From IMG/VR virus record IMGVR_UViG_3300010939_000019, positions 1-64,000 of that record: a stretch of 64,000 nucleotides of DNA; one strand, given 5' to 3'. The notes beneath the pieces were generated by a model. The model was not told the origin of the DNA. It ran no database searches and saw only the letters and a program-made list of their open reading frames with translations. The stretch is from a virus. Positions 11,865 to 60,203 of this stretch are shown one piece after another (within the stretch, counting starts at the first letter, position 1; the number at the start of each line of letters is the position of its first letter). The translations under genes and the position numbers were made by a program.

Positions 11865-12203
11865 CTAACGTCCTTCGATAGTATGTTCTATGCTAGACTT
11901 AGCAATCAGTCCAGAGCGAGGAATCTTAATACCTTGATCCTTACAATCTGCAAAGAACTCTTCAGTGAGCGCATAAGTAGCTTTTGCATATTCTCTGATA
12001 CCTTGAGCCTTAGCTTTGAGTGACCATGACATTCGGTAATGAGGCAGTGCTCTACGAAACCAAGTTTCTATGTCAGAGAGCATATCGAGTGCAGCTTCTT
12101 CAGGATAATGACTGGCTCTCATAATGTTAATAGCAAATCGCTTATCGCCTCTTTCAGCTTCTATCATATCTTCTCCCTGCCTTATATCTAAGATGCTTGA
12201 CAA
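11865..12203 (-). CDS. hypothetical protein (divergent from the early + operon)
   Basis: 112-aa ORF, one of the few minus-strand genes. It has its own consensus-like promoter at 12216-12244 (minus). Confidence 0.5.
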   Translation of the reverse strand: MSSILDIRQGEDMIEAERGDKRFAINIMRASHYPEEAALDMLSDIETWFRRALPHYRMSWSLKAKAQGIREYAKATYALTEEFFADCKDQGIKIPRSGLIAKSSIEHTIEGR

Positions 12204-17774: not shown

Positions 17775-17786
17775 TTTAATAACTTC

Positions 17787-17870
17787 ATACGGGGCAGATT
17801 TCTGCAGAGATACTCGTCGTCGCCCTCCCGCGATTAATGGGCTAGCTGTAATAGAAGAATCTGCCCCGTA
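17787..17870 (+). other. long-range hairpin enclosing a G+C-rich 56-nt insert
   Basis: ATACGGGGCAGATT (17787-17800) is perfectly complementary to AATCTGCCCCGTAT (17857-17870). No U-tract follows. Confidence 0.5.
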
Positions 17871-17899
17871 TAGAGCTATTAAATAAGAAAGGAGATGAT

Positions 17900-23547: not shown

Positions 23548-23599
23548 TAGAGGAAAATCAAAGGCAGATCCTTGTATTATGTCAACTAAAATACATGGT

Positions 23600-23670
23600 G
23601 CCCAAAGATGGGTATATGTTTGGGCGCTATATTAACAAGACGCCCAAACATAGATTGACTTTTGGGCGTC
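23600..23670. promoter_or_regulatory. two palindromic operators GCCCAAA-N12-TTTGGGC
   Basis: Operator 1 is 23600-23625. Operator 2 is 23639-23670, with 10-bp arms GACGCCCAAA/TTTGGGCGTC. Centres are 42 bp apart. Confidence 0.55.
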
Positions 23671-23682
23671 ATGTGGTATACT
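23655..23682 (+). promoter_or_regulatory. promoter overlapped by operator 2
   Basis: TTGACT-16 nt-TATACT with TGg extended -10. The -35 lies inside the operator spacer. Confidence 0.5.
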
Positions 23683-23758
23683 AGATAGGATTGAACTTCG
23701 TATTACCTACGGTATATAGTTAATGCCCCGTAGTTACTAGTTGGCGAGATTATTTATT

Positions 23759-25764: not shown

Positions 25765-25996
25765 CCAGGGTATTGTTCTTGAAGAAGATTGGGGTTGGCC
25801 TGTTAGCATTGTTGAGATGACAGAAGATGGAGAGTCGCTTTTCTTCATGGTCTGGTGCGCTCAAAAAGACGGTGATAGTCAGTGTGAGTGTCAGCCTACT
25901 CCTCCTGTAGGAACAGCAACAACGAAAGAAGGTGCTCTTGAAGCATGGCGATTTCAACACTTCGAGAAACGCTATCAAGGTAGGCGACGACAGTAA
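25748..25996 (+). CDS. hypothetical protein
   Basis: 82-aa ORF. Confidence 0.45.
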   Translation: MLSLSDQGIVLEEDWGWPVSIVEMTEDGESLFFMVWCAQKDGDSQCECQPTPPVGTATTKEGALEAWRFQHFEKRYQGRRRQ

Positions 25997-27765
25997 TGGT
26001 TTTAGAAGATACCAAGGGAAAAACAGTACATCATAAACCTCCTGATTTTAATAGTGTGTGGACTTCATCGCAGCTAAGTTGTGAGCGGTACTGTTATCTT
26101 ATTGCTCAGGGTATCGAAGGTGACTTTGTAGAGTCAGCTGTGCTTGATGAAGGTCGTCTTCACGAAGATGATGTAATAGCTAAACTACAAGTTAAGGGTG
26201 TTATAGTTACAGATAGACAAGTAACACTACGACATCCTACATTGCCTTTAATTGGTCATCCTGATGGAAGAGTTTATATACCTCCTGACATGTCTTCAGG
26301 AATTCTTGTTCCTGGAACCAGATATCTTCTCGATGTAAAGTGTGTTTCTCTTGGGACTCAAATTCTTAAGGCTGATTTGACTTGGGTAAATGCTGGTGAT
26401 TTACGGGAAGGTGATAAGGTAGTTGGATTTGATGAAAATCCAGATGGGGGCCGTAGACGACTGCGAGAATCTACTGTGGTTAGTAATAATATTGAAATAA
26501 TGCCAGCATTGGATACTGTTTTATCAGACGGCAGTGTATTACGTTCTTCCAGTTCACATTATTGGTTAACTAGTAGGCTTTCTGGAGAAGCAGAAAGAAT
26601 TGTTCCACCGTTCTGGGAAAAGACTTCTGAACTCTCTAGCGGCTTTATTCCTAAAAGAGATAGATTTGATTGGGAGGCTAGCTCTTATTATCTTCCTAAA
26701 TATTTCTCTGTTTGGGAAGAAGACTTCTCATACGAAGCTGGCTACTTGTCTGCTTCGTGGGATGGTGAAGGGAGTTTATTTTATTCACCATCCCGTCCAT
26801 GTTGGCAATTAGAGTTCAGTCAGTCTGAGAATGAGATGCTGGAAAGAGTGAAGGCTTATCTGGATGAAAAGGAATTTAACTATAGAACTAATGACAGAAT
26901 AACTTCTAGTGGCAAAGTGAATGTTTTAGTAACTTTACAAGGTGGCTTTGCTGAGATAACTCGATTCTTAGGGCAGTTTAGACCTCCTCGTCTGCTATCA
27001 AAATTTCATTGGGAGAAACAACCATTCTTACAGATGAAGTCACTTCCAGAAGTTGAAGATGTGGTAGATGTTGGTGAGAAGTCATTGTGTGTCTTACAGA
27101 CAACGACTGGCACGTTTATAGCTGAAGGGTTTGCCTCTCACAACAGTTTCGACAGAAGTTTCCATCAGAAGGCTATTAAGGACTTCGTTGGTAACTTTCC
27201 ACATTTATATAGACAGTTACAGAGTTATTCTCTGATGTCTGAAGATCATGAACCTGTTTATGTACCGGCTAAAAATAGAGCATCTGGTGAGATTCATGAG
27301 TTAGTCCTTGATCCTGATGAAGAAGAGTGGTCTAAGATAGAAACTATGATAACCATTCTTGATAACGCTGTTCATGATCCGAAGTTTGATTATAAGTATT
27401 TACATTGTCCTCCTGCTGATTCTATATCTGGAAGGTACTGTCCTTATCGCGTAGTAGGTATGTGTGAGCATCAGACTAATATTCCTAATATTACTGAGGC
27501 TCAGGTAGTACAAGCTTTATCTGATTATCAAGAAGGTAAGACTCTTGAAAAAATAGGTGGAGAACGTAAGCTGGAAGCTAAAGAGATTATGGCAGCGTAC
27601 TTAAAGAATCATAATATTACAAAGATGAAGATAGGTGATAAGGTTCCTATGATAACTGACGAGAATAGTCGATCCTGTGATTATGATATGTTAGAGCAAG
27701 AAGATCTTGTACTGTATAAGAAGGTAGTGAAAAAGACACCTTACCAGAAGTTTCAAATCAGATGA
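25996..27765 (+). CDS. Cas4/RecB-like PD-(D/E)XK exonuclease interrupted by an intein
   Basis: The exteins carry GHPDG...YLLDVK|SFD (D...D-x-K nuclease motif) plus an N-terminal Cys and a C-terminal CPPADSISGRYCPYRVVGMC cluster, as in Cas4-type Fe-S nucleases. Confidence 0.7.
   Translation: MVLEDTKGKTVHHKPPDFNSVWTSSQLSCERYCYLIAQGIEGDFVESAVLDEGRLHEDDVIAKLQVKGVIVTDRQVTLRHPTLPLIGHPDGRVYIPPDMSSGILVPGTRYLLDVKCVSLGTQILKADLTWVNAGDLREGDKVVGFDENPDGGRRRLRESTVVSNNIEIMPALDTVLSDGSVLRSSSSHYWLTSRLSGEAERIVPPFWEKTSELSSGFIPKRDRFDWEASSYYLPKYFSVWEEDFSYEAGYLSASWDGEGSLFYSPSRPCWQLEFSQSENEMLERVKAYLDEKEFNYRTNDRITSSGKVNVLVTLQGGFAEITRFLGQFRPPRLLSKFHWEKQPFLQMKSLPEVEDVVDVGEKSLCVLQTTTGTFIAEGFASHNSFDRSFHQKAIKDFVGNFPHLYRQLQSYSLMSEDHEPVYVPAKNRASGEIHELVLDPDEEEWSKIETMITILDNAVHDPKFDYKYLHCPPADSISGRYCPYRVVGMCEHQTNIPNITEAQVVQALSDYQEGKTLEKIGGERKLEAKEIMAAYLKNHNITKMKIGDKVPMITDENSRSCDYDMLEQEDLVLYKKVVKKTPYQKFQIR
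26341..27144 (+). mobile_element. intein with LAGLIDADG-type homing endonuclease domain (aa 116-383)
   Basis: Begins CVSLGTQI right after the catalytic Lys and ends ...FIAEGFASHN followed by Ser. Block-B-like SSSH. Internal YEAGYLSASWDGEGSL. Confidence 0.7.
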
Positions 27766-27777
27766 CATCTACTTTAC

Positions 27778-27806
27778 TTGACAAGCTTTCAGATATGTGT
27801 TATAAA
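27778..27806 (+). promoter_or_regulatory. conserved promoter copy
   Basis: TTGACA-agcttTCAGATATGTGt-TATAAA. Confidence 0.55.
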
Positions 27807-27857: not shown

Positions 27858-28688
27858 ATGGCTGCTAGAGAAAAGATAATGCTTGGTGGAGAGTCGAAGT
27901 CTGGGAAGACTTTTTCTTGGCTCTCTATAGCGCGAAGTAATCCAGATTCCCAGTTCTATGTTGCAGAGCCTGATGATGGTATTAATAAGGTTCTAGAGAA
28001 TGAATATGAAGATGTATTGAAACATGGTAATGTTCATGGTGCTCATAAAAGTCTAGAAGGATTATGGATGCCACCTGAGTTTATTTCTCAGAACTGGAAA
28101 GATGTACGTAATTTTGTAAGTGGACTGAAAAGCCTTCGGGATGCAGGTGAGTTAAGTCCTGATGATTGGATTATACTAGAAGGTATGGATATTATTACTC
28201 GTATAATTCGGTCAGAATATATTGCAGATACTAATAAAATAGATTCTAAGACGAAAGCAATGATGGCAGATCCTTGGGAGGCTATTAAGTCAAAGCGAGC
28301 TAGGGGCGCGCCTGTTCTGGAACCATCTGATCATGATGCAATTAATTATGAGTATGAAGGTCAGATGACTACTCTAGTGTATACTATGCCTTGTAACTTC
28401 TTAGGAACGTCCGGTATTGAGCGTATCCATTTTGATTCTAAGTTTATGGACGAAGATCAGAAGCAGTATTATGCATCCCTGGGAACTGGTCTTAAACTGG
28501 AAGGTCATAAGCGTAATCCGCGTATGTTTGATACTATAGTCTATCTGTATGTAGGTAGTGAGTATCAGATGGAGGTTCTTGGAGATAGAGGTATTGGTAA
28601 ACAATCTCGGCGTAAATGTACAGACTTCTGGCTGGAGCTACAACGGTCTAGAGCAGCTAAAATATCTGAAGGAGCTGTAGCGAAGTGA
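27858..28688 (+). CDS. AAA/RecA-like ATPase (possible Sak4-like recombination ATPase)
   Basis: N-terminal Walker A GGESKSGKT, WIILEGMD Walker-B-like. Sits next to the exonuclease gene. Confidence 0.5.
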   Translation: MAAREKIMLGGESKSGKTFSWLSIARSNPDSQFYVAEPDDGINKVLENEYEDVLKHGNVHGAHKSLEGLWMPPEFISQNWKDVRNFVSGLKSLRDAGELSPDDWIILEGMDIITRIIRSEYIADTNKIDSKTKAMMADPWEAIKSKRARGAPVLEPSDHDAINYEYEGQMTTLVYTMPCNFLGTSGIERIHFDSKFMDEDQKQYYASLGTGLKLEGHKRNPRMFDTIVYLYVGSEYQMEVLGDRGIGKQSRRKCTDFWLELQRSRAAKISEGAVAK

Positions 28689-28897
28689 CTGTATTTGCCA
28701 AAGCGTGGAATTCTTTAAAGCAGAGTATAGAAGAAAAGAATTCTTGGGGTAAAAATGAATTAAAAATGTTAATGTTGATGTATGACTGTCTACATACAGC
28801 AGCCACGGAGAATGATAGGGGAGAAGATGCATATAACGATCTTCAGGCTTGGTTAGAGTATGTGCAGATTGTGGACTCTGTGGACTCTCAGGTATAG
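28685..28897 (+). CDS. hypothetical protein
   Basis: 70-aa ORF overlapping the upstream stop (GTGA). Confidence 0.45.
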   Translation: MTVFAKAWNSLKQSIEEKNSWGKNELKMLMLMYDCLHTAATENDRGEDAYNDLQAWLEYVQIVDSVDSQV

Positions 28898-28959
28898 AGC
28901 TGTTAATCTACAGATGTAAGGATACTGCTGATGGTTTTCATACAGTTAGACATGAGTGA

Positions 28960-29224
28960 AAGGAGAGATCTCGGAGTCCACTCAGAACGGTAAATCAGGA
29001 TACCTTTGTAGAAAGGTAATGCTTGTTCACCGTCTCCTGTGCGCCTGAGCAGTCCAGCTTGTTCGTCATCGAGACTGGACTTTCTTGCTGAGATTCATCT
29101 TTTAGGTCTTTTGAGCATCTCAGTAGGGAGTAATGGAGGTTTCAGAAAAGAGTGACTGTCATTCTGATCTGACAGTAAGTAAGATGGACAACTGAATTCT
29201 GAGTGGACTTTGAGGTCTCTTCTT
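28960..29224 (+). ncRNA. candidate structured RNA (~265 nt), family unknown
   Basis: 28-bp closing helix 28960-28987/29197-29224 whose only non-Watson-Crick pairs are 4 G-U wobbles. Four internal 7-bp hairpins. No ORF of 60 aa or more on either strand. Confidence 0.5.
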
Positions 29225-29234
29225 AAGAATAGGT

Positions 29235-29639
29235 ATGATAGTTGGGAGGTACGATAATGTGGTTACAGCGAAAGAAAAGATACTAGACTTACCTAGACCA
29301 CTTACTGATAATCTATCAGATATAGGTGACGAACTGGGTGTTAGTAGACAATATGTTCATCAGATTGTAACTGAAGAAAAGATACCGTATATAGTTGGAG
29401 GAGTTAAGCAGAGACAAGTATGCATAAATCCTGAGTGCGATAATCTGACTTCTTACTCAGATCCAGATAGAGATTCATACTGTGATCTGTGTGACTCTAT
29501 AGAACTTAGACGTAAAGGAGAATGGGTAAAGTGTACTCTTTGCAGAACATCAGTCTATCGTCGTCAGTCACTACTAGCAAGAACTAAACAGGTTTTCTGT
29601 AGTACAGGATGTTATAATAAGTTTAGACAGATTAAATAA
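29235..29639 (+). CDS. HTH plus zinc-ribbon DNA-binding protein
   Basis: LSDIGDELGVSRQYVHQIV HTH, and C-terminal CxxC pairs. A GTG at 29259 has a better RBS (GGGAGG). Confidence 0.5.
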   Translation: MIVGRYDNVVTAKEKILDLPRPLTDNLSDIGDELGVSRQYVHQIVTEEKIPYIVGGVKQRQVCINPECDNLTSYSDPDRDSYCDLCDSIELRRKGEWVKCTLCRTSVYRRQSLLARTKQVFCSTGCYNKFRQIK

Positions 29640-29654
29640 AGGATTAATATAAAC

Positions 29655-30079
29655 ATGTATTCTATTAAAATCAAGAGACGGTTTTATGAGAAAACAGAAT
29701 ATATTGAAGGTCATTTATTGTGGTTGGGCGCTTTAGATGGTTGCAGTTATGGTAGTTTCTGGAATGGCGAGACAGTAGAACATGCTCACAGAATTGCCTG
29801 GAAGTTAATTTATGGTGATATTCCAGATGATAAACATATACTCCATAAGAATATCTGTCAGCATCCTCCGTGTGTAAATATCAGGCATCTCTATCTTGGA
29901 ACTCACCAAGATAATATGAGAGATACAGTGAAAGCTGGAAGTCACTATTTTGCAAGCAGAACTCATTGTCTAAAAGGTCATCGAATACCTATCATCGTCA
30001 GCAGTTAAATGGTGGCTCTATGGGAATGTGCCGATCTTGTAATAGAGAGCGATCCAGAATAAATAGAATGGCTTCTTAA
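29655..30079 (+). pseudogene. HNH_3-type homing endonuclease disrupted by a frameshift
   Basis: GHLLWLGALDG...HAHRIAWKLIYG...HKNICQHPPCVNIRHLYLGTHQDNMRD is open to 30008. The expected C-terminus NTYHRQQLNGGSMGMCRSCNRERSR continues in the -1 frame from about 29981 to 30079. Confidence 0.5.
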
Positions 30080-30083
30080 TACT

Positions 30084-30773
30084 ATGGTGAGTATATTATA
30101 TAGTCCTTCAGAGCCGTGGGAAATAAAAAATGACTTTGGTAATGTTGGTATTTCAACACCAAGTATTCCTTGTGATTATGTTTGGTATTGTAATGGGCGC
30201 AAAACGCAGATAGAACGTAAGCATGTACCACAGGACTTACTAGCATCTATTAACGATGGGCGGCTTACTAAAGTAACTCAGATACTTATCCAGAATATCG
30301 AGAAAGGTGGACGTAGTTATCTTCTTTTAGAAGGCTTTATACGCTGTAACAGTAGTGGCTTTATTCTTAATCCAGATAGACCTAGTGGGTGGGAAATAGA
30401 TAAGGTTTCTAGTCTGATCTCTTCTATTCAAGCATCTGGTATAGAGTTACTTCTGAGTCCTAGTATTAAAGAAACAGCTCTGATACTTATTAGCCAGATG
30501 AGATGGGAGATGAAGGGAGAACATAAAAGCACTCGTACTAGACCTGGGCCTACGCATGAATGGGGACAGCCTGCATTCGCGCCTTATATGCTTTGGTCGA
30601 TACAAGGGATTCCAGGAGTAGGAGCAGATCTTGCAGAGATATTGTATGGTACGGCTCCAACTTGGGAAAAGCTATTAGAGTTATCAATAGAAGACTTACA
30701 GCAGTTAAAACGTATTGGCAAAAAGAGAGCTGAGGGGATATGGACATTTCTCCACACAGGAAAACTGTTATAG
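30084..30773 (+). CDS. ERCC4 (XPF/Mus81-like) nuclease with C-terminal (HhH)2 domain
   Basis: GRKTQIERKHVPQDLLASINDGRL carries the ERKxxxD signature. C-terminal GIPGVGADLAEIL...LKRIGKKRAEGIW helix-hairpin-helix pair. Confidence 0.75.
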   Translation: MVSILYSPSEPWEIKNDFGNVGISTPSIPCDYVWYCNGRKTQIERKHVPQDLLASINDGRLTKVTQILIQNIEKGGRSYLLLEGFIRCNSSGFILNPDRPSGWEIDKVSSLISSIQASGIELLLSPSIKETALILISQMRWEMKGEHKSTRTRPGPTHEWGQPAFAPYMLWSIQGIPGVGADLAEILYGTAPTWEKLLELSIEDLQQLKRIGKKRAEGIWTFLHTGKLL

Positions 30774-31228
30774 TTATAGAAGGACGATTTTGGGCTAAAG
30801 TTAATAAAACTGAAGGTTGCTGGAATTGGACAGGAGCTAGAGGTGGACTGTATAATTATGGACATTTCTGGATGGGTTATGATAGGGGAGTCCAACAAGC
30901 TCATAGAGTTTCTTGGTTTATATCTTACGGAGAATTTCCTCAGCAATGTGTTCTTCATAAATGTGATAATGTTATATGTGTAAGGATAGAGCATCTATTT
31001 TTAGGGACGCGAACAGATAATGCGAGAGATAGAGATTTAAAAGAGAGACAGGTTAAAGGTGAAGATCATGGAATGGTAAAACTTAGTATAGAAGAAGTTA
31101 AAGAGATTCGTCTCCGCTATACTGAAGAAAAAGTATATTATTGGGAACTGGCTGATATATATGGCGTATCTCCAAGTCAAATTGGTCGAATTGTTAGAGG
31201 TAAAAGATGGAGTCATGCTTCTTCTTAA
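30740..31228 (+). CDS. HNH_3-type homing endonuclease with C-terminal HTH
   Basis: GCWNWTGARGG...QAHRVSWFISYG...HKCDNVICVRIEHLFLGTRTDNARD. C-terminal ELADIYGVSPSQIGRIVRG. Confidence 0.8.
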   Translation: MDISPHRKTVIVIEGRFWAKVNKTEGCWNWTGARGGLYNYGHFWMGYDRGVQQAHRVSWFISYGEFPQQCVLHKCDNVICVRIEHLFLGTRTDNARDRDLKERQVKGEDHGMVKLSIEEVKEIRLRYTEEKVYYWELADIYGVSPSQIGRIVRGKRWSHASS

Positions 31229-31400
31229 GGGCTTTCCAGGAATAGATGCAGAAATAGCTGATATTCTATTTAATGCTGCTCCTACATTTGAGAATCTGTT
31301 AGCTATGTCTGTTGAGGACTTTACAGAACTAAAGCGATTTGGCAAGAAACGTAGTGAAGGACTATATCGCTTCCTCCATGAGGGTAAATTAATTGACTAG
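31215..31400 (+). CDS. stand-alone (HhH)2 fragment, diverged duplicate of the ERCC4 gene 3' end
   Basis: LKGFPGIDAEIADILFNAAPTFENLLAMSVEDFTELKRFGKKRSEGLYRFLHEGKL aligns with aa 172-229 of 30084-30773. Confidence 0.5.
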   Translation: MLLLKGFPGIDAEIADILFNAAPTFENLLAMSVEDFTELKRFGKKRSEGLYRFLHEGKLID

Positions 31401-31523: not shown

Positions 31524-31744
31524 TGACTCAGAAGCCTGAGATTTCTTTCAGGATTAAGATAACAGGTATACGAGAAAAAGTTAAAGGTTCTGAAGTTCAT
31601 AGAGGGGATGTTGGTATAGAAGGCGCAGTAGTGGACTGGATGGATATAGAAGGATTTGAAGTATGGATACCAGTTATTATTCTGTATGATGGTAAAGGAA
31701 AAGTAGTCTTTGGAGATAAAATATGGTGGAAGAGGTTAAGCTAG
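31523..31744 (+). CDS. hypothetical protein
   Basis: 73-aa ORF, GTG start overlapping the upstream stop. Confidence 0.4.
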   Translation: MTQKPEISFRIKITGIREKVKGSEVHRGDVGIEGAVVDWMDIEGFEVWIPVIILYDGKGKVVFGDKIWWKRLS

Positions 31745-32175
31745 ATATCCAAGCGGCCCGTGAGCGCTGCGAGGCGGCGTGTGTAAACTGTGGCGCACCA
31801 TTCACCCCGCGCCGTAAGGATCACCGCTTCTGTTGCGCTCGGTGTCGTTGGACGTATAAGGAGCGCACGACTGGACGAGAGGCGCGGAACCGGCGAACGG
31901 CGGCATATCGCAAGACGGAAAAGGGGAAGGCGGTTGCTAGTGCTATTACGCGCCGACAATATCAAAAGAACCCCGAAGCTGCGATGGCTCGGGCCATGTC
32001 TGGTCATGCCTTGCGGAGAGGTGAAATCGTACAAGCCTCAGAATGTGAAAGTTGTGATGCGCCAGGTCGCCTGGAGGCCCATCACCACAACGGATACAAG
32101 CGCGATCATTGGCTCGATGTGCGCTGGCTTTGCAAGCCGTGCCATGTGGAGGTTCACCATGTGTTGCAGAACTGA
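31723..32175 (+). CDS. zinc-ribbon plus HNH nuclease-like protein (first gene of the G+C-rich island)
   Basis: CVNCG...CCARC, then CESC...EAHHHNGYKRDHWLDVRWLCKPCHVEVHH. Composition switches to G+C-rich at about 31741. Confidence 0.6.
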   Translation: MVEEVKLDIQAARERCEAACVNCGAPFTPRRKDHRFCCARCRWTYKERTTGREARNRRTAAYRKTEKGKAVASAITRRQYQKNPEAAMARAMSGHALRRGEIVQASECESCDAPGRLEAHHHNGYKRDHWLDVRWLCKPCHVEVHHVLQN

Positions 32176-32350
32176 CGCCCACTCCGATCTAGTCAAAGCT
32201 CTGGAGGCACTGGAGGAGGCGCAGGGGTTGCTACGGCGTTTTCATGTCGCTGGCTTATTGAGTTACGAGAGCGGGAAAACTAATGCGGTGGGAGATGTTT
32301 GGCGGGATGTTGACCGCTTTCTGCCCAAGGAGGGGAACAATGACGACTAA
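32159..32350 (+). CDS. hypothetical protein (G+C-rich island)
   Basis: ATG at 32159 overlaps the upstream stop. Only the 3' part of track ORF 31790-32350 is non-overlapping. Confidence 0.3.
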   Translation: MCCRTDAHSDLVKALEALEEAQGLLRRFHVAGLLSYESGKTNAVGDVWRDVDRFLPKEGNNDD

Positions 32351-32570
32351 CGGAGGGTGCATACACATTGACGGGTGTACCTGCTACGCCCGCCTACAGG
32401 CCAAGGTGAATGAAGTTTTACGAGAGAAGGAGGCCGTAGAGGAGCAGTTGCGCGGCTGCAAGGCGCTGGAGCGTCTACTTGTGGCACCTACTTACGACGT
32501 GGCGGCACATGATGAGGCTCGTGCCGCCATTACGCCCGAAGAGGCAAGCGAGAAGGAGGAAAAGCGATGA
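32340..32570 (+). CDS. hypothetical protein (G+C-rich island)
   Basis: ATG at 32340 preceded by AAGGAGGGG, in frame with track ORF 32283-32570. Confidence 0.4.
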   Translation: MTTNGGCIHIDGCTCYARLQAKVNEVLREKEAVEEQLRGCKALERLLVAPTYDVAAHDEARAAITPEEASEKEEKR

Positions 32571-32740
32571 ACGACCCTACCTGTTACGTCTGTGGGCACA
32601 CACCGGAGGAGCAGCGTGAGGAGATTCGAGAGTGTGAGGAACCGGACTGCGCCTGCGGAATGTTCGAGCCGCGTGAGGACGACGACGAGGAAGAGGATGC
32701 GTCGAGGGTGAACGTTACCTATCGCGTGATGAGGGGATAG
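32567..32740 (+). CDS. small Cys-rich acidic protein (G+C-rich island)
   Basis: 57 aa, CYVC...CEEPDCAC. ATGA overlap with the upstream gene. Confidence 0.35.
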   Translation: MNDPTCYVCGHTPEEQREEIRECEEPDCACGMFEPREDDDEEEDASRVNVTYRVMRG

Positions 32741-32809
32741 CTATCCTAGAAAGGTGGTCACGGCCATGAGGCCCATCAGCGAAGCCGATCAAAGGGAGAG
32801 AGCAAGCCG

Positions 32810-33043
32810 ATGATTTCTGAGGCTGACGAAATGGATTACAAGCAGCAGGAAGGCGAGGAGCGGCGTCGGGCGTTTTTGGAGCGCAGGGCGATGATGGGTG
32901 GGCCGGATGCGCCGGAGCCGTGCGAAAGGTGTGACGGCAATGGCCGCGTCGTTACAGACGCGTGTCTATGTCCGGCTCCTCTACACGATGAGGATTGCTA
33001 CCGCGAGTGTCCCCGCTGTCTTGGAACGGGAGTGCAGCCGTAA
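32810..33043 (+). CDS. small Cys-rich protein (G+C-rich island)
   Basis: 77 aa, CERCDGNG...CPRCLGTG (DnaJ-type CxxCxGxG-like pairs). Confidence 0.45.
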   Translation: MISEADEMDYKQQEGEERRRAFLERRAMMGGPDAPEPCERCDGNGRVVTDACLCPAPLHDEDCYRECPRCLGTGVQP

Positions 33044-33681
33044 TGCTGAGCGATGAGGCGCTGAGGCTGCTGGAGCGGCTAACGACCGATGAGGCGATGC
33101 ACTACCTCGTTGACCACGGCAATCCTGGCTACCCTGGCGACAAAGGTGTGCAGGTGGGGAACGAGCTGCACTGCAATTACTGTGATGCCAACGTGGATAG
33201 TGTGGATAGTGACGATCGATCACACAAGGCCGATTGTCCCTGGGCAGAAGCCCGTGCCTTCCTAGCCCAGCCCGAAGGGGCGCGAGAGGCGGCGCTGGTG
33301 GCGCTGGTGGACAAGGTGGCTTCCTATTCGCACGACCCTGACCTTATGTGGTTCCTCAATGAGCACCCTACTCGCTCCAATCGCTTCTTAGCAGCAGAGC
33401 TAGTTCGCTTAGAGTGTGCCCTTGCCGACACCTCCCCGGCTGCTGCGGTGCTGCTGGCACAGGCAAAGGTGGGCAGGGAGCACGTAGCATGGGGCGAAGA
33501 CAGCCAGCGGACACTTAATCGAATGTGTGAGGCGTACAGGGAAAGTAAGCAGGAGGTTCGTGCGCTGCTGGCCGCGAAGGCCGCACTGGAAGCGTGTAGG
33601 TACACACGCCATTGTGGGGGATGCGAAAATGCCCGCGCTGCCCTAGAGGTGGCCCTGATTGTGAGAGAGCCCATCACGTGA
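33043..33681 (+). CDS. hypothetical protein (G+C-rich island)
   Basis: ATG at 33043 in a TAATG overlap with the upstream stop. About 212 aa, Ala/Leu-rich. Confidence 0.5.
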   Translation: MLSDEALRLLERLTTDEAMHYLVDHGNPGYPGDKGVQVGNELHCNYCDANVDSVDSDDRSHKADCPWAEARAFLAQPEGAREAALVALVDKVASYSHDPDLMWFLNEHPTRSNRFLAAELVRLECALADTSPAAAVLLAQAKVGREHVAWGEDSQRTLNRMCEAYRESKQEVRALLAAKAALEACRYTRHCGGCENARAALEVALIVREPIT

Positions 33682-33815
33682 GCGCTGAGGTTCGCTGTCC
33701 CTATTGCAATAAGAAGCTCGCCGAGAGGCTGAACGGGAAGGTAGAGTTCATCTGTCGAGACTGCGAGCATAATAGAATAGGATATGGTTATATGGACGGG
33801 AAAATTATGATATGA
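33678..33815 (+). CDS. small zinc-ribbon protein at the right edge of the island
   Basis: GTGA overlap. CPYC...CRDC. Composition returns to AT-rich inside this ORF. Confidence 0.35.
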   Translation: MSAEVRCPYCNKKLAERLNGKVEFICRDCEHNRIGYGYMDGKIMI

Positions 33816-34153
33816 CAAGGCGATCTAATAGATTGTTTGATCAGAATGATCAGGAGTACCGTTCTGCTACTGGTCTAGATAGCATTGCTGGAAAAGAAGG
33901 TTATACTCTTGATGCTGATTATAATAGAGATCATCATCTTTATACTTTTCAATATAGAGGTCATGGTATAGTAGTGCCAGAGTCTGAAATAATGTGGGAG
34001 ACGTATCCTATGAATCTTTTAGCTGAAAAGATTACAGAATTTATCAAGTCTATAGATAAACAGATTGGATGGAACTGGGAACCTGGTAAACAGAAGTTAG
34101 GACATAATGAGATACTAGCACAATTAGAAGCCAGTTGTAAGGAGGTGGAGTAA
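33812..34153 (+). CDS. hypothetical protein
   Basis: 113-aa ORF. Confidence 0.5.
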   Translation: MTRRSNRLFDQNDQEYRSATGLDSIAGKEGYTLDADYNRDHHLYTFQYRGHGIVVPESEIMWETYPMNLLAEKITEFIKSIDKQIGWNWEPGKQKLGHNEILAQLEASCKEVE

Positions 34154-47846: not shown

Positions 47847-48443
47847 GTGGCAACTGCAACAAGAGAGAAGATTCAGGAGATTGCCGAGCGTCTAGCAAAG
47901 CTCTCGCCTGAAGCTCAAGCTGAAGAGATCGAAAAGATAGAGAAGAATGTAACGAAGCGTGAGACTAAGGCTCAGAAGTCAGCGCTTCAAGAGCACAAAG
48001 ATGGCCTAGCATCAGCCTTTGTGGACACCTTGCTTCAGTACGCATCCAGCAAGAAGGTCGAGCCTGATGTTCTTATACCTCTAGGAGTGAAGATCAATAA
48101 GTCCGAAGATGGTCGCGGCTTCGTGGGTGCAGTCACTGGCAAGGGTACTGGTTCTAAGGGCGGCAACGGAACCAGAGGCGAGTCCTTCTTGAAGTCTAAC
48201 GGCGTTCAGGCTATCGAGCTGAACGGTAAGCCTCTTGAAAAGACTGCAGAGAGTGAAGTCCTTCGAGTAGCTCATGGTGCTGCAAAAGCTAAAGATATCT
48301 ACAAAGATAAGTCTCCTCATGTTGTAGCGATGCAGCCAGAGAACCTGAAGCTTATCAAGGATAAGGGCTTCATGGCTGTTCTTGAGAGTGGTCAGAAGGT
48401 TTCACTAGCCAGTTTGTATGAGAAGGCTAATAGTCAGAAGTAG
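47847..48443 (+). CDS. Lys-rich hypothetical protein, paralog of 49522-50004
   Basis: 198 aa, GTG start with RBS AAAGGA. The C-terminal AKAKDIYKDKSPHVV matches ERAKDIYDKDSPERF in the paralog. Confidence 0.55.
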   Translation: MATATREKIQEIAERLAKLSPEAQAEEIEKIEKNVTKRETKAQKSALQEHKDGLASAFVDTLLQYASSKKVEPDVLIPLGVKINKSEDGRGFVGAVTGKGTGSKGGNGTRGESFLKSNGVQAIELNGKPLEKTAESEVLRVAHGAAKAKDIYKDKSPHVVAMQPENLKLIKDKGFMAVLESGQKVSLASLYEKANSQK

Positions 48444-48547
48444 GCACAGCACGTCAGGTTATAGTCATCATCTGACCCGACTCGCCACCTGACGACTGGA
48501 TAGACAAACAGTAATAGAATAGACAGTTACGCAGAGTGCGGACAGGG

Positions 48548-48581
48548 CCTCGCAGTTATGAGCTGCGGGGTCTTGTCTCTT
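48548..48581 (+). terminator. possible intrinsic terminator
   Basis: 8-bp stem CCTCGCAG/CTGCGGGG (one G-U pair), 7-nt loop, then TCTTGTCTCTT. Confidence 0.4.
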
Positions 48582-48776
48582 ATACTAAGAGATACCAAGA
48601 GATCGCCGAGTCGCCGTAGTCCTCAGATTCGTCAACTGACACAGTAGGTAAAACTCCTACTAATGATGCTGAGAGTCTTAATTTCAGAGCATTCAGTGAA
48701 AATAAGTGTGACAGATAACTGTCTTCATTATGTCTGATACAGATGTCGCTTTAAGACAATTGCCTTCATCGCCCTA

Positions 48777-49010
48777 TCATGTTGACGTTCCTTTAGATAT
48801 TACGTTGCAGACTGTGAAGTTGTATCTAGTTTTGGCTTTGAAGCTGGCATAGTCCAGGTTTCTGGTCTGATCTTCGCAGATACACTCAAAGCAGAATTCA
48901 CAGCTAACACAAGGCGAGTCTGTGAATATCTGACATAATCTACAGTGATTCTTTTCATGGGCGAGCGAGTGTTGTGCAGACTTTCTGGTTTTGCCTTTAA
49001 ATAGCTGCAT
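48777..49010 (-). CDS. Cys-rich hypothetical protein (minus strand)
   Basis: 77-aa ORF in an otherwise ORF-free 1-kb stretch, CRLC...CVSCEFCFEC. No clear RBS. Confidence 0.3.
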   Translation of the reverse strand: MQLFKGKTRKSAQHSLAHEKNHCRLCQIFTDSPCVSCEFCFECICEDQTRNLDYASFKAKTRYNFTVCNVISKGTST

Positions 49011-49039
49011 CTGAGCTTCTAAGATAATACTGTTCTGCT

Positions 49040-49125
49040 CTTCGAAGAGGTGCAGCCCTTTAATAACTAGATTAGGTGCAGATATCCTTTAAATCTTCAT
49101 TCGAATCTGGCGCTGTTCTTCGAAG
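49040..49125 (+). promoter_or_regulatory. cluster of CTTCGAAG / rGGTGCAG / CCTTTAAAT motifs
   Basis: CTTCGAAG-AGGTGCAG at 49040-49055, TAGGTGCAG at 49073-49081, CCTTTAAAT at 49086-49094, CTTCGAAG at 49118-49125. Confidence 0.5.
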
Positions 49126-49446
49126 ACCCTAACCTTATACTCAAAAGAAGCAGCATTTCTATTCCGGTATCAGAAGAGGGTGATCGTAGAACAAATGTCT
49201 AATAGACATAATAAAGAGGATAGATGAAAGTACATCGGGGAAGTGATAGACATAACGAAGAGGTCTCTAATGGTATAGGTATTAGTACATCTGGAACTTT
49301 GTTCGACGAAGAGGCCAACCTCACTAATCCAAAAGAAGCGGACATAACATATCGGCTTCTCTATCTATATTACTTGACATAATCTGCACCCAAAATAGGA
49401 ACTGCGATTCCATATTACGTCTACGTCTCTATGCCGTCTCTAGTGC

Positions 49447-49475
49447 TTGACGGCATAGATGATTCATGATACGAT
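49447..49475 (+). promoter_or_regulatory. promoter overlapped by a 10-bp inverted repeat
   Basis: TTGACG-17 nt-TACGAT with TGa. The IR CTATGCCGTC (49429-49438)/GACGGCATAG (49449-49458) covers the -35. Confidence 0.45.
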
Positions 49476-49521
49476 CTAGGTGTCGGGAATCAATGGTTCG
49501 TAGCGAAAGGAACGAAGCACA

Positions 49522-50004
49522 ATGACAAGCAAGAGAGACGCGATAGAGGCGGCCAAGCAAGCGCTGGCAACTGCTCGCAAGGCCGTCGCGGTAGACGACG
49601 AGCGTATCGTCAAGGCGGTGGATGGTATAGCCACCAAGCTCCACAAGTGCTACCTCGCAGCCTGCAAGATGGCCAAGGTGGACGCATCCGCGATGGTCTT
49701 CGTTGTGAACATGGACGGTGCTAACCGGCGTGGTGGTGGTGCCGGTGGTGACAAGTCACCGTCTCTAGGTCGCCAAGCCAAGGTGACGGGGTGGACAGTG
49801 AACAGTAAGGATATCGGCTCGCCGATGGCATCGAAGCTCATAGCCACTATCTACAACGTAGAGCGAGCCAAGGATATCTACGACAAGGACTCGCCCGAAC
49901 GCTTCATTCGCAAGTCCGCCTTCCTTGACCGCATTAGCAATCGTAAGGTCAAGGTGATCCACGATGGCAAGACAAGCGACGCGGTAGCGTTCCTGAAAGC
50001 ATAG
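49522..50004 (+). CDS. hypothetical protein, G+C-rich paralog of 47847-48443
   Basis: 160 aa with the shared KDIY-x-KDSP motif. Strongly G/C-biased third positions. Confidence 0.55.
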   Translation: MTSKRDAIEAAKQALATARKAVAVDDERIVKAVDGIATKLHKCYLAACKMAKVDASAMVFVVNMDGANRRGGGAGGDKSPSLGRQAKVTGWTVNSKDIGSPMASKLIATIYNVERAKDIYDKDSPERFIRKSAFLDRISNRKVKVIHDGKTSDAVAFLKA

Positions 50005-52542: not shown

Positions 52543-52571
52543 ATATTAGCATAGGTCTGTAGTTTTGTCAA
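52543..52571 (-). promoter_or_regulatory. conserved promoter copy driving the minus-strand operon
   Basis: The minus strand reads TTGACA-aaactACAGACCTATGc-TAATAT. Confidence 0.5.
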
Positions 52572-52592
52572 GCACTATAGACAACATAGAAA

Positions 52593-57347: not shown

Positions 57348-60203
57348 ATGCCATTCAAGATACCTAATGAAGCAGATGTTGATGCTGCTCATGTCGATCA
57401 GGCCGAGCCAGATTCAGTAGACTTCGACATCATCGCAGCGGCTTTTGCCTTAGATGGTGTTGTTTCTGGTTGTGTGGTAACCGCACAAGGCCCTGTAACT
57501 TTAACCGTGGATGTTGCTGCTGGCACTGTCCGTATTACGGGTGTAGATGGGACTATTAGTGGTACAACTGCTACTGTAGGAGCTGCCGATCTTACTGATC
57601 CTAGATTCGACCTAATTGTGGCTGGGTTAGGAGATATTGTGGCGGTGGTTGCTGGAACTGCATCCTCCAACCCCGTCTTCCCCGCTGTTCCAGCCTCCCG
57701 TGCTGTCCTTGCTGCTATTTATATCCCTTCTGGGGTTACAGCGATAGCGGCGAACCAGATAGTTGACAAGAGGATTGTGTTACTAGTTCAGGTCGGGATA
57801 ACACTAGCCGCTGATGCTCAGGAACTACTTAATATCACTGCTCAAGAATTGGGACTGGTGGCAAAGGCCGCTAATCTAATCCTAGCTGGCCCTATCTCTG
57901 GTGGTACTGCTGACCCAACCTTTCGAGCCCTCGTTGATAATGATATTCCCGCCGCTATTGCTCGTGACAGTGAGGTCACGGCAGATATTGCCACTCATGC
58001 TGCGCTGGTTGCAGTCCACCACAGTTTAGTCACCGTCAGTGGTGCTCCTAATTACCTAACCCTAGCCGGTCAGGATCTTATACGTGGTCTTATTGACCTT
58101 ACATCAGATGTAACTGGCCTTCTTCCATCGGGGAACATAGCTGCTGATATAGCGAGGGATAGCGAGCTACACTCTGAGATTCATGGCTCTGGACAACATG
58201 GTTCTGAGAGCGATGCGGCGGCCATCCACGACAACGTAGCCGCCGAGATCGTCGCTATCACGGAGAAACTCACTCCCGTCGCTGCCGATCTCCTGCTAAT
58301 CGAGGATTCGGTGGCGGCCAACGCGAAGAAGAGGGTGCAGGTAGGAAACCTCCCAGGTGGTGCGGGTGGCCACACAATACGGGACGAGGGGACAGACCTT
58401 GCGGCAAGGACGGGGCTGAACTTTCTCGGCCCGATGGTAGATGCGGTCGACGACGTGGGCGGGGACGAGTCCGAGATACGCCACTTCTCTCGCCTATACG
58501 ATGCCATCGTTGCGCCGAGCGCTGAAGCAGGTGCCTTCGCCGGAGGTTCAATCCCTGTTTTCACGACTGTCGCTGCTGCCATCACTGCGGGACACCAGAA
58601 TATATTCGTTCGTGGCGACCACTCTGGCGAGGTCGATCTGACAATCGCCGTCGGAGACAGCGTTGACGTGATTGTGGGTGCCGACCGGAAGTCGGCGAAG
58701 ATGCCGAACGTCATCTGCAACCGCGCCGAGGTACTGTTTCAGAGCCTCCTATTTGATGGCAAGAGCCTCACCTGTGGGGCGAACGGCATCCAGGCCCTAC
58801 GCTGTGAGTTCAAGAACCTCAATGGGTTCTTTGACCAGGGAAGTGTTAAAGTCGACCTTGTTGTTCGCGCCTGTGTATTCGATACTTGTACGGACGCAAT
58901 TAGAGGGGCAGTGTTAAACAGCCGCCTTTCCGTAGTCTCCAACGTCTTCAAGAATTGTATCGGGGCATTCTGTGTAGACGTGACGAGCAACACGGCTGGG
59001 GCCGTTGTCACCGGCAACATCTTCCGAGTGAGTAATACAGCCTCGATCCTCGTACGTGTTGGGCCGAGCACATCAAATATCCAGATCAGCGGCAACAGCT
59101 TCTTCCTGTCGGCCTCCCAGACAGGGGTTAGTGCCAATCAGTTTTGTATTATATCTGGTAACATCTTCAGTGGGGGCGCCACGGCTATAGGTGTCGTCCT
59201 GATCTTCCGCAATAATATCGTCGCAGGCAATCTATACAGGGGTGCTCCGAATCCCTGTATAGATGTCAAAGAGAGCGCCAACCTCATCGCAAATAATACA
59301 TTCCATCTGTCTAGCACTATCATCACGGTAATCGACGTTTCGGCAAACAAAGGGAACACGACCATCATTGGGAACGCCTTTGTTGCGAACACGGGTACCG
59401 TCGCTCACGTCGCGGTTGATCTGACAGCTGGCGCGGAAGCGGCCAAGGTACTTATCTCTAGTAATACCTTTAGCTCGCTGTCAATCGGAACGCTTGCTTG
59501 GGCTGGGGAGCCGGTAACTGGCTTCACGGCGGATACGCGCATTATCGGCAATGTCGGGGTGCCGGACAACGTGAATACAATCAAGGGGGAAGACGATTTC
59601 TACTTCCTTGACATAGGTTCCGCCAACGAGTCCTGGGTCAGCGTGGCCTCTGGCGGTTTAGCGCCAGCCCTACAGAACGCACATGGAGGCAGGGTACGCC
59701 TGGAGGCCACGACGGCTGGGCATAGGTCTGGCCTTCAGAATGGGACAAACACACTGGGGGCGTTCTTCGTTTTTGTCTCTGGCCGTCGGGCGAGTTATGA
59801 GGCCATCATAGATCACGTGGTAGGAACACCGCTGAATGTGGCCTTCCGACTAGGCTATGCAGATACCTGGAACGTCGCTGGTGACCCAGTGGGTGGCGTC
59901 TTCTTTCGCCGTAGCGGAACGGGGAACTGGTTTGGTGTTATTCGTAACGCTGGCGCGGAGACGATATTAGACCTGGGACAGGCGACGGGTGCTCGGTTCC
60001 TCATGCGCTTCACGAGGGGTTTGGTGAACGGAAGTGGCAGCCGCGTTCAGTTCTACATCGACGGTGTGCTGAAAGTCACGACCAGTACGTTGACCAATCT
60101 CCCGATCAACGCGCAGCACGTCGGGGGGAAATTGGATATTATTAACACGCAGAACCAGGAACTCGACGTGGACGTTATCAAGTGGGAAGGAGACCGGAAC
60201 TAA
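57348..60203 (+). CDS. G+C-rich fibre/tailspike-like protein with right-handed beta-helix repeats
   Basis: 951 aa. Repeated GN-I/F motifs (VTGNIFRV, ISGNSFFL, ISGNIFSG, VAGNLYRG, IANNTFHL, IIGNAFVA) typical of pectate-lyase-like beta-helices. The C-terminal about 200 aa look jelly-roll-like. Confidence 0.65.
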   Translation: MPFKIPNEADVDAAHVDQAEPDSVDFDIIAAAFALDGVVSGCVVTAQGPVTLTVDVAAGTVRITGVDGTISGTTATVGAADLTDPRFDLIVAGLGDIVAVVAGTASSNPVFPAVPASRAVLAAIYIPSGVTAIAANQIVDKRIVLLVQVGITLAADAQELLNITAQELGLVAKAANLILAGPISGGTADPTFRALVDNDIPAAIARDSEVTADIATHAALVAVHHSLVTVSGAPNYLTLAGQDLIRGLIDLTSDVTGLLPSGNIAADIARDSELHSEIHGSGQHGSESDAAAIHDNVAAEIVAITEKLTPVAADLLLIEDSVAANAKKRVQVGNLPGGAGGHTIRDEGTDLAARTGLNFLGPMVDAVDDVGGDESEIRHFSRLYDAIVAPSAEAGAFAGGSIPVFTTVAAAITAGHQNIFVRGDHSGEVDLTIAVGDSVDVIVGADRKSAKMPNVICNRAEVLFQSLLFDGKSLTCGANGIQALRCEFKNLNGFFDQGSVKVDLVVRACVFDTCTDAIRGAVLNSRLSVVSNVFKNCIGAFCVDVTSNTAGAVVTGNIFRVSNTASILVRVGPSTSNIQISGNSFFLSASQTGVSANQFCIISGNIFSGGATAIGVVLIFRNNIVAGNLYRGAPNPCIDVKESANLIANNTFHLSSTIITVIDVSANKGNTTIIGNAFVANTGTVAHVAVDLTAGAEAAKVLISSNTFSSLSIGTLAWAGEPVTGFTADTRIIGNVGVPDNVNTIKGEDDFYFLDIGSANESWVSVASGGLAPALQNAHGGRVRLEATTAGHRSGLQNGTNTLGAFFVFVSGRRASYEAIIDHVVGTPLNVAFRLGYADTWNVAGDPVGGVFFRRSGTGNWFGVIRNAGAETILDLGQATGARFLMRFTRGLVNGSGSRVQFYIDGVLKVTTSTLTNLPINAQHVGGKLDIINTQNQELDVDVIKWEGDRN

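Follow-up and report, generated by a model that had tools for sequence, protein, structure and literature searches.

RNA folds that contain two multi-helix junctions and a pseudoknot are rare, and those characterised are mostly ribozymes, riboswitches or scaffolds of ribonucleoproteins (RNPs). Here we describe such a fold in an uncultivated tailed phage, at positions 28960-29224 of IMG/VR virus record IMGVR_UViG_3300010939_000019; the stretch analysed, called the window below, comprises positions 1 to 64,000 of that record (64,000 nucleotides). The element is a phage-encoded + strand structured RNA inside an early/recombination gene block, and its ~265 nt almost certainly represent a genuine, novel structured RNA family. 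It is at the level of the RNA family that the element is categorically new; no new mechanism is claimed.

Long double-stranded RNA (dsRNA) stems at the termini of an embedded RNA are known from RNase III substrates, such as the rRNA precursor, the 23S intervening sequences and the T7 and lambda sites. RNase III cleaves dsRNA of at least ~20 bp and processes the polycistronic early mRNAs of T7 and lambda as well as the stems of the rRNA precursor. The element likewise has a terminal helix longer than 20 bp, P1, which is kept by compensatory change. However, the T7 and lambda sites are simple hairpins of ~60 nt without conserved cargo, whereas P1 encloses a conserved two-junction fold of ~210 nt and its cleavage is only predicted. 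The lysine riboswitch and the cobalamin aptamers resemble the element in lying 5′ of a specific gene and in having a long-range loop contact, invariant junction nucleotides and, for lysine, a five-way junction. Unlike them, the element has no Rfam match and no expression platform that we could find, its P1 is 24-29 bp long instead of a short switchable helix, and the downstream gene, which encodes a helix-turn-helix/double-zinc-ribbon protein (HTH-Zn), gives no metabolic clue. In phi29 pRNA, Y RNA/YrlA and 6S RNA, the 5′ and 3′ ends also form a long helix that carries a central domain. However, no covariance model (CM) of these RNAs matches the element, the window open reading frames (ORFs) scanned include no Ro/TROVE, RtcB or phi29-type genes, and the terminase and portal of the phage are of the gpA and Mu types, respectively. 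Retron msr/msd RNAs share with the element the flanking inverted repeats (a1/a2-like) around stem-loops and a phage or defence-type context, but no reverse-transcriptase domain occurs in the ORFs scanned, and a fold of junctions and a pseudoknot differs from the msr hairpins and long msd hairpin. GOLLD and ROOL, large RNAs associated with phages or prophages, are likewise phage-encoded multi-junction folds discovered by covariation; they are ~600-800 nt long, widespread and often near tRNA genes (PMC12286853). The element, in contrast, is ~265 nt long, occurs in one phage clade, is linked to the HTH-Zn gene and an ERCC4 nuclease gene, and has no CM match. It thus belongs to none of these systems, and every family-level test that was run was negative.

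The RNA is bounded by a 28-nt inverted repeat (28960-28987/29197-29224), in which 24 of the 28 positions form Watson-Crick pairs and the other four form G-U pairs on the + strand (28963/29221, 28969/29215, 28973/29211 and 28974/29210). This closing helix, including the positions of its four wobbles, is as proposed in a preliminary description of the window made from the sequence alone, which also took the region for a highly structured + strand RNA. The folding energy agrees with that proposal: the minimum free energy of 28960-29224 on the + strand is -115.7 kcal/mol, compared with -77.6 ± 4.9 kcal/mol for dinucleotide shuffles (z = -7.85; 0 of 200 shuffles as good). The - strand of the element gave -85.2 kcal/mol (z = -4.98), and the fold of the homologous locus L001 had a z of -6.56.

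Covariation among homologues from related phages, a check that the preliminary description had called for, carries the main evidence. An 80-pair structure, including a pseudoknot first spotted by eye, was tested on an alignment of 15 distinct sequences (A3). In this alignment 97.4% of paired cells were canonical, compared with 84.0 ± 0.6% in shuffles and 37-47% when the partner strand was slid by 1-3 columns. Changes on both sides were seen in 55 of the 80 pairs, and none of 500 shuffles matched the alignment on any measure. RNAalifold, run on 11 sequences, predicted 71 pairs, 48 of them with compensatory changes. Such support, 55 covarying pairs from only 15 sequences, is unusually clean. The parts of the RNA are as follows.

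28960-28987, + strand: 5′ arm of P1 (the clamp, or closing helix), pairing with 29197-29224; 19 of 27 pairs compensatory
28988-28991, + strand: P2 5′ strand, CGGU, pairing with 29029-29032; 100% paired, two of four pairs covarying (G-C to C-G in L137)
28992-28999, + strand: conserved AAA followed by the pseudoknot 5′ strand UCAGG (28995-28999), pairing with 29044-29048
29000-29028, + strand: variable hairpin region P2a, with a hairpin at 29001-29018 (GUAG loop) in the window
29029-29032, + strand: P2 3′ strand, ACCG, pairing with 28988-28991
29033-29037, + strand: P3 5′ strand, UCUCC, pairing with GGAGG at 29135-29139
29038-29050, + strand: junction UGU followed by a mini-hairpin GC/GC (29041-29050), whose loop CCUGA (29044-29048) is the pseudoknot 3′ strand
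29051-29081, + strand: P4 hairpin; 8 of 10 pairs compensatory
29082-29129, + strand: P5 hairpin of 13 bp with a variable loop of ~12-45 nt; 11 of 13 pairs compensatory
29130-29139, + strand: junction GUAAU (29130-29134) followed by the P3 3′ strand GGAGG (29135-29139)
29142-29172, + strand: P6 hairpin; 9 of 9 pairs compensatory
29173-29194, + strand: P7 hairpin CAGY/RCUG with a loop of ~15 nt; 100% paired, two of four pairs covarying
29197-29224, + strand: 3′ arm of P1, pairing with 28960-28987

P1, P2, P3, P6 and P7 meet in a five-way junction with linkers of 0, 0, 2, 0 and 2 nt, and P3 meets the mini-hairpin, P4 and P5 in a four-way junction through the invariant strands UGU and GUAAU. The 5-bp pseudoknot (UCAGG with CCUGA) joins the P2 internal loop to the loop of the mini-hairpin; its five pairs are canonical in all sequences, with a change from U-A to C-G in L127 and L128 and from G-C to U-G in L137. 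One of the two pairs of the mini-hairpin covaries (C-G to U-A in L126 and L127). P3 is also 100% canonical, with one-sided changes only (C to U, giving U-G), so that it is consistent with covariation but falls short of proof by it. Sixteen unpaired positions are invariant and nearly all of them lie in the junctions (AAA, UGU, GUAAU and AA), while the loops vary. UGU and GUAAUGGAG (29130-29139 region) are identical in 15 of 15 sequences, and the AA that follows P7 (29195-29196) does not change either.

Among the inner pairings drawn in the preliminary description, the hairpins at 29001-29018 (P2a), 29051-29081 (P4) and 29088-29123 (P5) and the short helix 28988-28991/29029-29032 (P2) coincide with helices supported by the alignment. 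Two others had to be replaced. Both are complementary in the window, but the hairpin at 29155-29176 is only 58% paired across the 15 homologues and the short helix 29141-29145/29192-29196 is not conserved. Of their 12 pairs, a single one, in the hairpin, shows a compensatory change, and shuffles do just as well. P6 and P7 take their place. P3, the 2-bp mini-hairpin at 29041-29050 and the pseudoknot (28995-28999 with 29044-29048) were absent from that description.

P1 was 24-29 bp long in all 14 sequences with complete termini (dG -33 to -48 kcal/mol), with at most one internal mismatch in most sequences, and 22 bp long in L117, in which the 5′ end is lost in a run of N. The outer half of its 5′ arm resembles a Shine-Dalgarno (SD) sequence, AAGGAGAG, and the inner half, AGUCCACUCAGAA, is conserved in sequence. 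The outer half is preserved through compensatory change: for example, AGGAG/CUUCU is replaced by AAACU/AGUUU in L133. The SD-like AAGGAGG at the 5′ end of P1 was considered as a ribosome binding site or the start of a small ORF and was rejected, since no conserved start codon follows; in the L133 subclade AAGGAGG is replaced by AAAACUAU, with compensation in the partner strand. P2a forms a hairpin in all homologues but varies in length and sequence, with an insertion of 25-45 nt in the L133 subclade. This insertion (L133 5520-5585; L171, L160, L170; A3 columns 53-100) holds a conserved CCUCGCUUU motif. In this subclade, the base of P1 also lacks the SD-like AGGAG, and the SDs before the downstream gene are only weak. 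These differences of P2a and SD may reflect a different host group.

The strand on which the element folds can be read from the wobble pairs. The paired columns of the alignment hold 143 G-U cells and 8 A-C cells; from these and the pairing counts, only ~86% of cells would pair on the opposite strand, compared with 97% on the + strand. Therefore, a double-stranded cruciform or the terminal inverted repeats (TIRs) of a transposon are ruled out, and it is the + strand transcript that folds, in the same sense as all neighbouring genes, as had been proposed from the wobbles of P1. The 28-bp terminal inverted repeats and the location in a recombination module with many HNH and LAGLIDADG homing elements would otherwise fit an element acting as DNA: a miniature inverted-repeat transposable element (MITE), a cruciform or recombination target of the neighbouring nucleases, or a replication origin folded as + strand single-stranded DNA (ssDNA). 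Folded origins of this last kind are likewise strand-specific and tolerate G-T pairs. However, folded + strand ssDNA would leave the pseudoknot and the invariant junction nucleotides unexplained, and the covariation in six inner helices and the pseudoknot, like those nucleotides, is superfluous for a transposase or cruciform model. The element is also single-copy: there is one per contig and none elsewhere in the window or in ~200 fetched loci, and the sequence of the P1 arm has no second occurrence within the window. Its position is syntenic in all loci, not scattered. A MITE or TIR element was therefore rejected on copy number, wobble asymmetry and synteny, and a DNA-level element of any kind is very improbable.

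A chance structure, an ordinary intergenic hairpin or an unannotated small protein gene can be given practically no weight. For a coding origin there are short ORFs of 30-38 aa and nothing more; these are the only ORFs that overlap the gap at 28898-29234, which, as first described, holds none of 60 aa or more on either strand. The non-coding gap probably extends in truth over 28960-29258, because an ORF in another frame ends with TGA at 28957-28959 and the downstream gene most likely starts with GTG at 29259. Across the homologues there is no conserved reading frame: the longest + strand ORFs have 26-53 codons at non-homologous positions and in non-homologous frames, stop codons lie within the invariant blocks, and insertions and deletions are not multiples of three. 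Together with the z-scores and the covariation, this already refutes the chance or coding explanation.

The RNA was compared with known families. A search of the whole window with Rfam 15 (4,227 curated families) at the gathering threshold yielded no match. With permissive filters, three chance-level matches (E 5-10; 13-17 bits, compared with thresholds of 35-47) appeared in 28600-29600, and a permissive search of ten homologous loci gave nothing at the element. The models included group I and II introns, RNase P, tmRNA, 6S, pRNA, YrlA, GOLLD, ROOL, HEARO and T-box, as well as all riboswitch and ribozyme classes. ARAGORN detected no tRNA or tmRNA gene in the window. The preliminary description, which recognised no known RNA family here and set aside tRNA and tmRNA, was thus right on these points, and of the outcomes that it had named as telling against its proposal (an Rfam match, missing covariation, a conserved small protein) none was found. 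Some further identities were tried and rejected. GAGCAGUCC and AUGAAUAGCUG resemble the CR-I and J18/2 segments of RNase P by eye, but the RNase P covariance models give no match. A group I intron is contradicted by flanking ORFs that form distinct genes, with a stop codon and an SD of their own, by an upstream gene that differs between lineages, and by the lack of a CM match. A retron msr/msd was rejected because no RVT domain was found in the flanking genes, in 36 window ORFs searched with Pfam or in those scanned with PHROGs, a scan that covered part of the small ORFs elsewhere in the window. Ro/TROVE, RtcB, RNA ligase and phi29-type genes were not seen among the window proteins scanned.

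The RNA occurs only in a single clade of uncultivated tailed phages. The phage DNA had no blastn match among 50,697 phage records, and its terminase shares no more than 27% identity with the terminases of cultured phages. Homologous loci were first reached through contigs that encode relatives of the Sak4-like protein (276 aa) of the window, of which 13, with 53-100% identity, were found in a collection of 5.8 billion proteins. Homologues were searched with nhmmer profiles, which find the element in all these Sak4-like lineages except L132. A degenerate core pattern was built from the most conserved stretch, CGTCTYYTGTGYRSCTGRRCRG. In IMG/VR it matched the same phage group only; in one genome per GTDB species it gave 8 matches, none of them real, an absence that holds within the stringency of the pattern; and in a metagenome collection it identified 13 true loci, with four clearly distinct new versions and L161, which is near-identical to L137. 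A second, independent pattern (AGTAATGGAG-N30-60-AGCYGAATY) uncovered no further lineage in viral contigs. An exact 15-mer, AACGGTAAATCAGGA, was discarded as a probe, since its 115 matches in viral contigs were all due to chance except for one related contig. The total was 15 distinct sequences, all from related uncultivated phage contigs; the two source names given are both marine sediment metagenomes. Sequence identity of the RNA among homologues is 62-89%, compared with an HTH-Zn protein identity that falls to 32-47% in the more distant lineages. Literature searches uncovered no description of such an RNA.

The genomic context bears directly on what the RNA may do. The + strand block runs in the order RecE-like exonuclease, Sak4-like protein, zinc-knuckle ORF, RNA, HTH-Zn, HNH and ERCC4-HhH (helix-hairpin-helix). 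The features next to the RNA are as follows.

27770-27806, + strand: promoter-like element (TTGACA-N17-TATAAA type), a member of repeat family D1
27858-28688, + strand: Sak4-like annealing protein gene, 276 aa, upstream of the RNA
28957-28959, + strand: TGA stop codon of the small zinc-knuckle ORF upstream, immediately adjacent to P1
29244-29639, + strand: SD GGGAGG (29244-29249) and HTH/double-zinc-ribbon (HTH-Zn) gene, probable start GTG at 29259
30084-30773, + strand: ERCC4-HhH nuclease gene (Pfam ERCC4 and HHH_5), directly after HTH-Zn in relatives

The HTH-Zn gene is directly downstream of the RNA in every locus with enough sequence to tell, 17-70 nt after P1, and the ERCC4 gene follows HTH-Zn in turn, whatever precedes the RNA. 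A radical-SAM gene precedes it in L127 and a 73-aa ORF in L128, where five further genes separate this ORF from the Sak4-like gene; in L137 a consensus TTGACA-18-TATAAT promoter lies ~40 nt upstream of the RNA. In all three loci HTH-Zn and ERCC4 still follow. L132 has neither the RNA nor the HTH-Zn gene. The RNA is thereby shown to be genetically coupled to the HTH-Zn/ERCC4 pair. The HTH-Zn family comprises 19 proteins in the 5.8-billion-protein collection, all confined to the RNA-bearing clade, and the protein had no tblastn match in deposited phage records. Its AlphaFold2 model (pLDDT, the predicted local distance difference test, 81) was considered as a clue to function and set aside, as the PDB matches were weak (E ≥ 0.18) and limited to sigma-region-4-type HTH domains.

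This arrangement is what a cis-acting mRNA leader would show, and such a leader, in which the RNA is an aptamer (a riboswitch or an autoregulatory site of HTH-Zn) that sets the translation or stability of the HTH-Zn/ERCC4 message, is the main rival of the processing model given below. Like a riboswitch, the RNA is a conserved, covarying, aptamer-like domain 5′ of a gene; whatever its upstream neighbours, a member of one gene family always follows 17-70 nt downstream on the same strand, and the RNA and the HTH-Zn gene share their phyletic distribution. The promoter directly upstream in L137 points the same way. The size and junction complexity of the RNA are also within the range of large aptamers such as those of the lysine, cobalamin and T-box RNAs. 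Other results speak against a leader. No terminator was found on the + strand, and no conserved or significant fold that sequesters the SD or start codon was found in seven homologues: alternative pairings with the P1 3′ arm left free had z-scores of -1.3 to +1.2, and each locus folds differently. P1 helices of riboswitches are typically 4-8 bp long, while that of the element (24-29 bp, -33 to -48 kcal/mol) is too stable for ligand toggling. Moreover, the translational operators known from phages are much simpler than this fold. A leader is accordingly possible, though on the unlikely side.

We tentatively favour, as regards mechanism only, a model in which the RNA is processed from the mRNA and acts through its fold. 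The RNA would be made within a polycistronic mRNA, because in most genomes it has no promoter or terminator of its own. In the window, no promoter-like or terminator-like site next to the element on the + strand rose above chance, and the nearest member of the promoter-like family is at 27770; this element (27770-27806) probably drives the transcript that contains the RNA. Host RNase III would then cut P1, which offers uninterrupted dsRNA of more than two helical turns. P1 is suggested as the substrate because its length is conserved while its outer sequence drifts, and in all complete homologues it provides the near-continuous dsRNA of at least ~20 bp that marks RNase III stems. Cleavage would free a compact RNA of ~210-260 nt, protected by the remaining helix, and would also detach the upstream message from the HTH-Zn/ERCC4 message, giving the latter a new 5′ end. 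The released RNA may act via its tertiary fold and not by antisense pairing, its partner being a protein or a small ligand; action by shape, through protein or ligand binding or catalysis, is preferred because the conserved unpaired nucleotides are in the junctions while the loops vary. The co-inherited HTH-Zn and ERCC4 proteins are candidate partners. The two models are not exclusive, since RNase III cleavage could itself set the expression of the downstream genes.

Several points weigh against the processing model. Classically, such a strict link to a single gene family marks a cis-regulatory leader and not a trans-acting RNA, and in L137 the RNA, ~40 nt downstream of a consensus promoter, is in the 5′ leader. 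Because the homologues all belong to a single phage clade in which gene order is conserved, the linkage represents few independent events. The length of P1 could be conserved for another dsRNA-binding protein or as a barrier to exonucleases. Finally, the HTH-Zn model resembles, weakly, only DNA-binding HTH domains.

It is unlikely, but worth considering, that the RNA represents a new functional class: a large ribozyme, a high-affinity aptamer released in many copies as a sponge for a host signalling or defence nucleotide, or the RNA subunit of an RNP with HTH-Zn and the ERCC4-HhH nuclease that takes part in phage recombination or counter-defence. These options share this low likelihood among them; the complex fold, the invariant junction nucleotides and the tight genetic linkage are compatible with each of them. 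Taken by itself, catalysis, by a new large ribozyme that excises itself from the mRNA or has a substrate of host or phage origin, is quite improbable. The compact fold with two junctions, a pseudoknot and invariant junction nucleotides has a complexity and conservation typical of ribozymes and above those of the flanking proteins, and some processing would be needed for an RNA without its own promoter and terminator. However, none of the ribozyme classes in Rfam resembles the RNA, a cleavage site cannot be deduced, and RNase III is a simpler processing route.

If the processing model is true and the RNA acts in trans, it would be a new example of functional RNAs hidden inside phage operons; as a leader, it would regulate through an unusual platform that might depend on RNase III. 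Its size suits chemical probing and cryo-electron microscopy, and with candidate protein partners encoded next to it, its function is directly testable in a heterologous system. It comes from a phage lineage without cultured relatives. The narrow distribution, a single environmental phage clade, tempers this interest.

The window covers most of the genome of a tailed phage; among the recorded contigs that encode the Sak4-like protein, the longest has 67 kb. Its genes include those for a ribonucleotide reductase, an amidase endolysin, two N6/N4 methyltransferases, a DnaB-like ATPase, a gpA-type terminase and a Mu-type portal. The upstream stop codon is 0-6 nt from P1 in most homologous loci, in keeping with an RNA embedded in operons. 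In the window, the zinc-knuckle ORF looks frameshifted (28685-28897, continuing in another frame at 28849-28959), whereas in L001 it is a single ORF of 85 aa; the shift may stem from a sequencing error, mark a pseudogene or be programmed. The start assigned to the HTH-Zn gene by the ORF program (ATG at 29235) is probably wrong, as the homologues align from GTG at 29259, which gives a protein of 126 aa, as in relatives. An HNH_3 endonuclease gene (29655-30008) splits HTH-Zn from ERCC4 in this genome only; in relatives the two genes are adjacent or overlapping.

The promoter-like family (sigma-70-like, TTGACA-N17-TATACT, with a shared spacer motif CAGATGT) has members at 12189, 23265, 27770 and 35630 (+ strand) and at 52547-52579 (- strand) of the window and at 6181-6210 of L137. 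These are probably early or middle promoters of the phage.

The gene for the RecE-like exonuclease (25996-27765) carries an insert of ~266 aa (residues ~118-383) with a weak match to LAGLIDADG_3. The insert is absent from the 320-aa homologue of L001, which is 69-73% identical on both sides of it, and is probably an intein with a homing endonuclease. On the other side of the RNA, an HNH-HTH gene (30740-31228) and then a 79-aa ORF (31161-31400) come after the ERCC4-HhH gene (30084-30773). This ORF repeats the HhH C-terminus, with 51% identity to the end of the ERCC4-HhH gene itself, and by eye is nearer to the L001 version. The region 30084-31400 looks like a homing-endonuclease cassette that displaces or duplicates the 3′ end of ERCC4-HhH.

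Three islands (31700-34000, 48000-50000 and 58000-60000) have a GC content of 0.48-0.56, compared with ~0.40 in the rest of the genome, and may be recently acquired DNA or assembly chimeras. The first opens with an ORF (31723-32175) whose C-terminus is HNH-like by eye and for which Pfam gives only a weak HypA match. Other intergenic inverted repeats of the window are at 23582-23685 (45-nt arms, 71% complementary) and 17775-17883 (26-nt arms, 88% complementary), the latter of which could be a terminator or another structured element.

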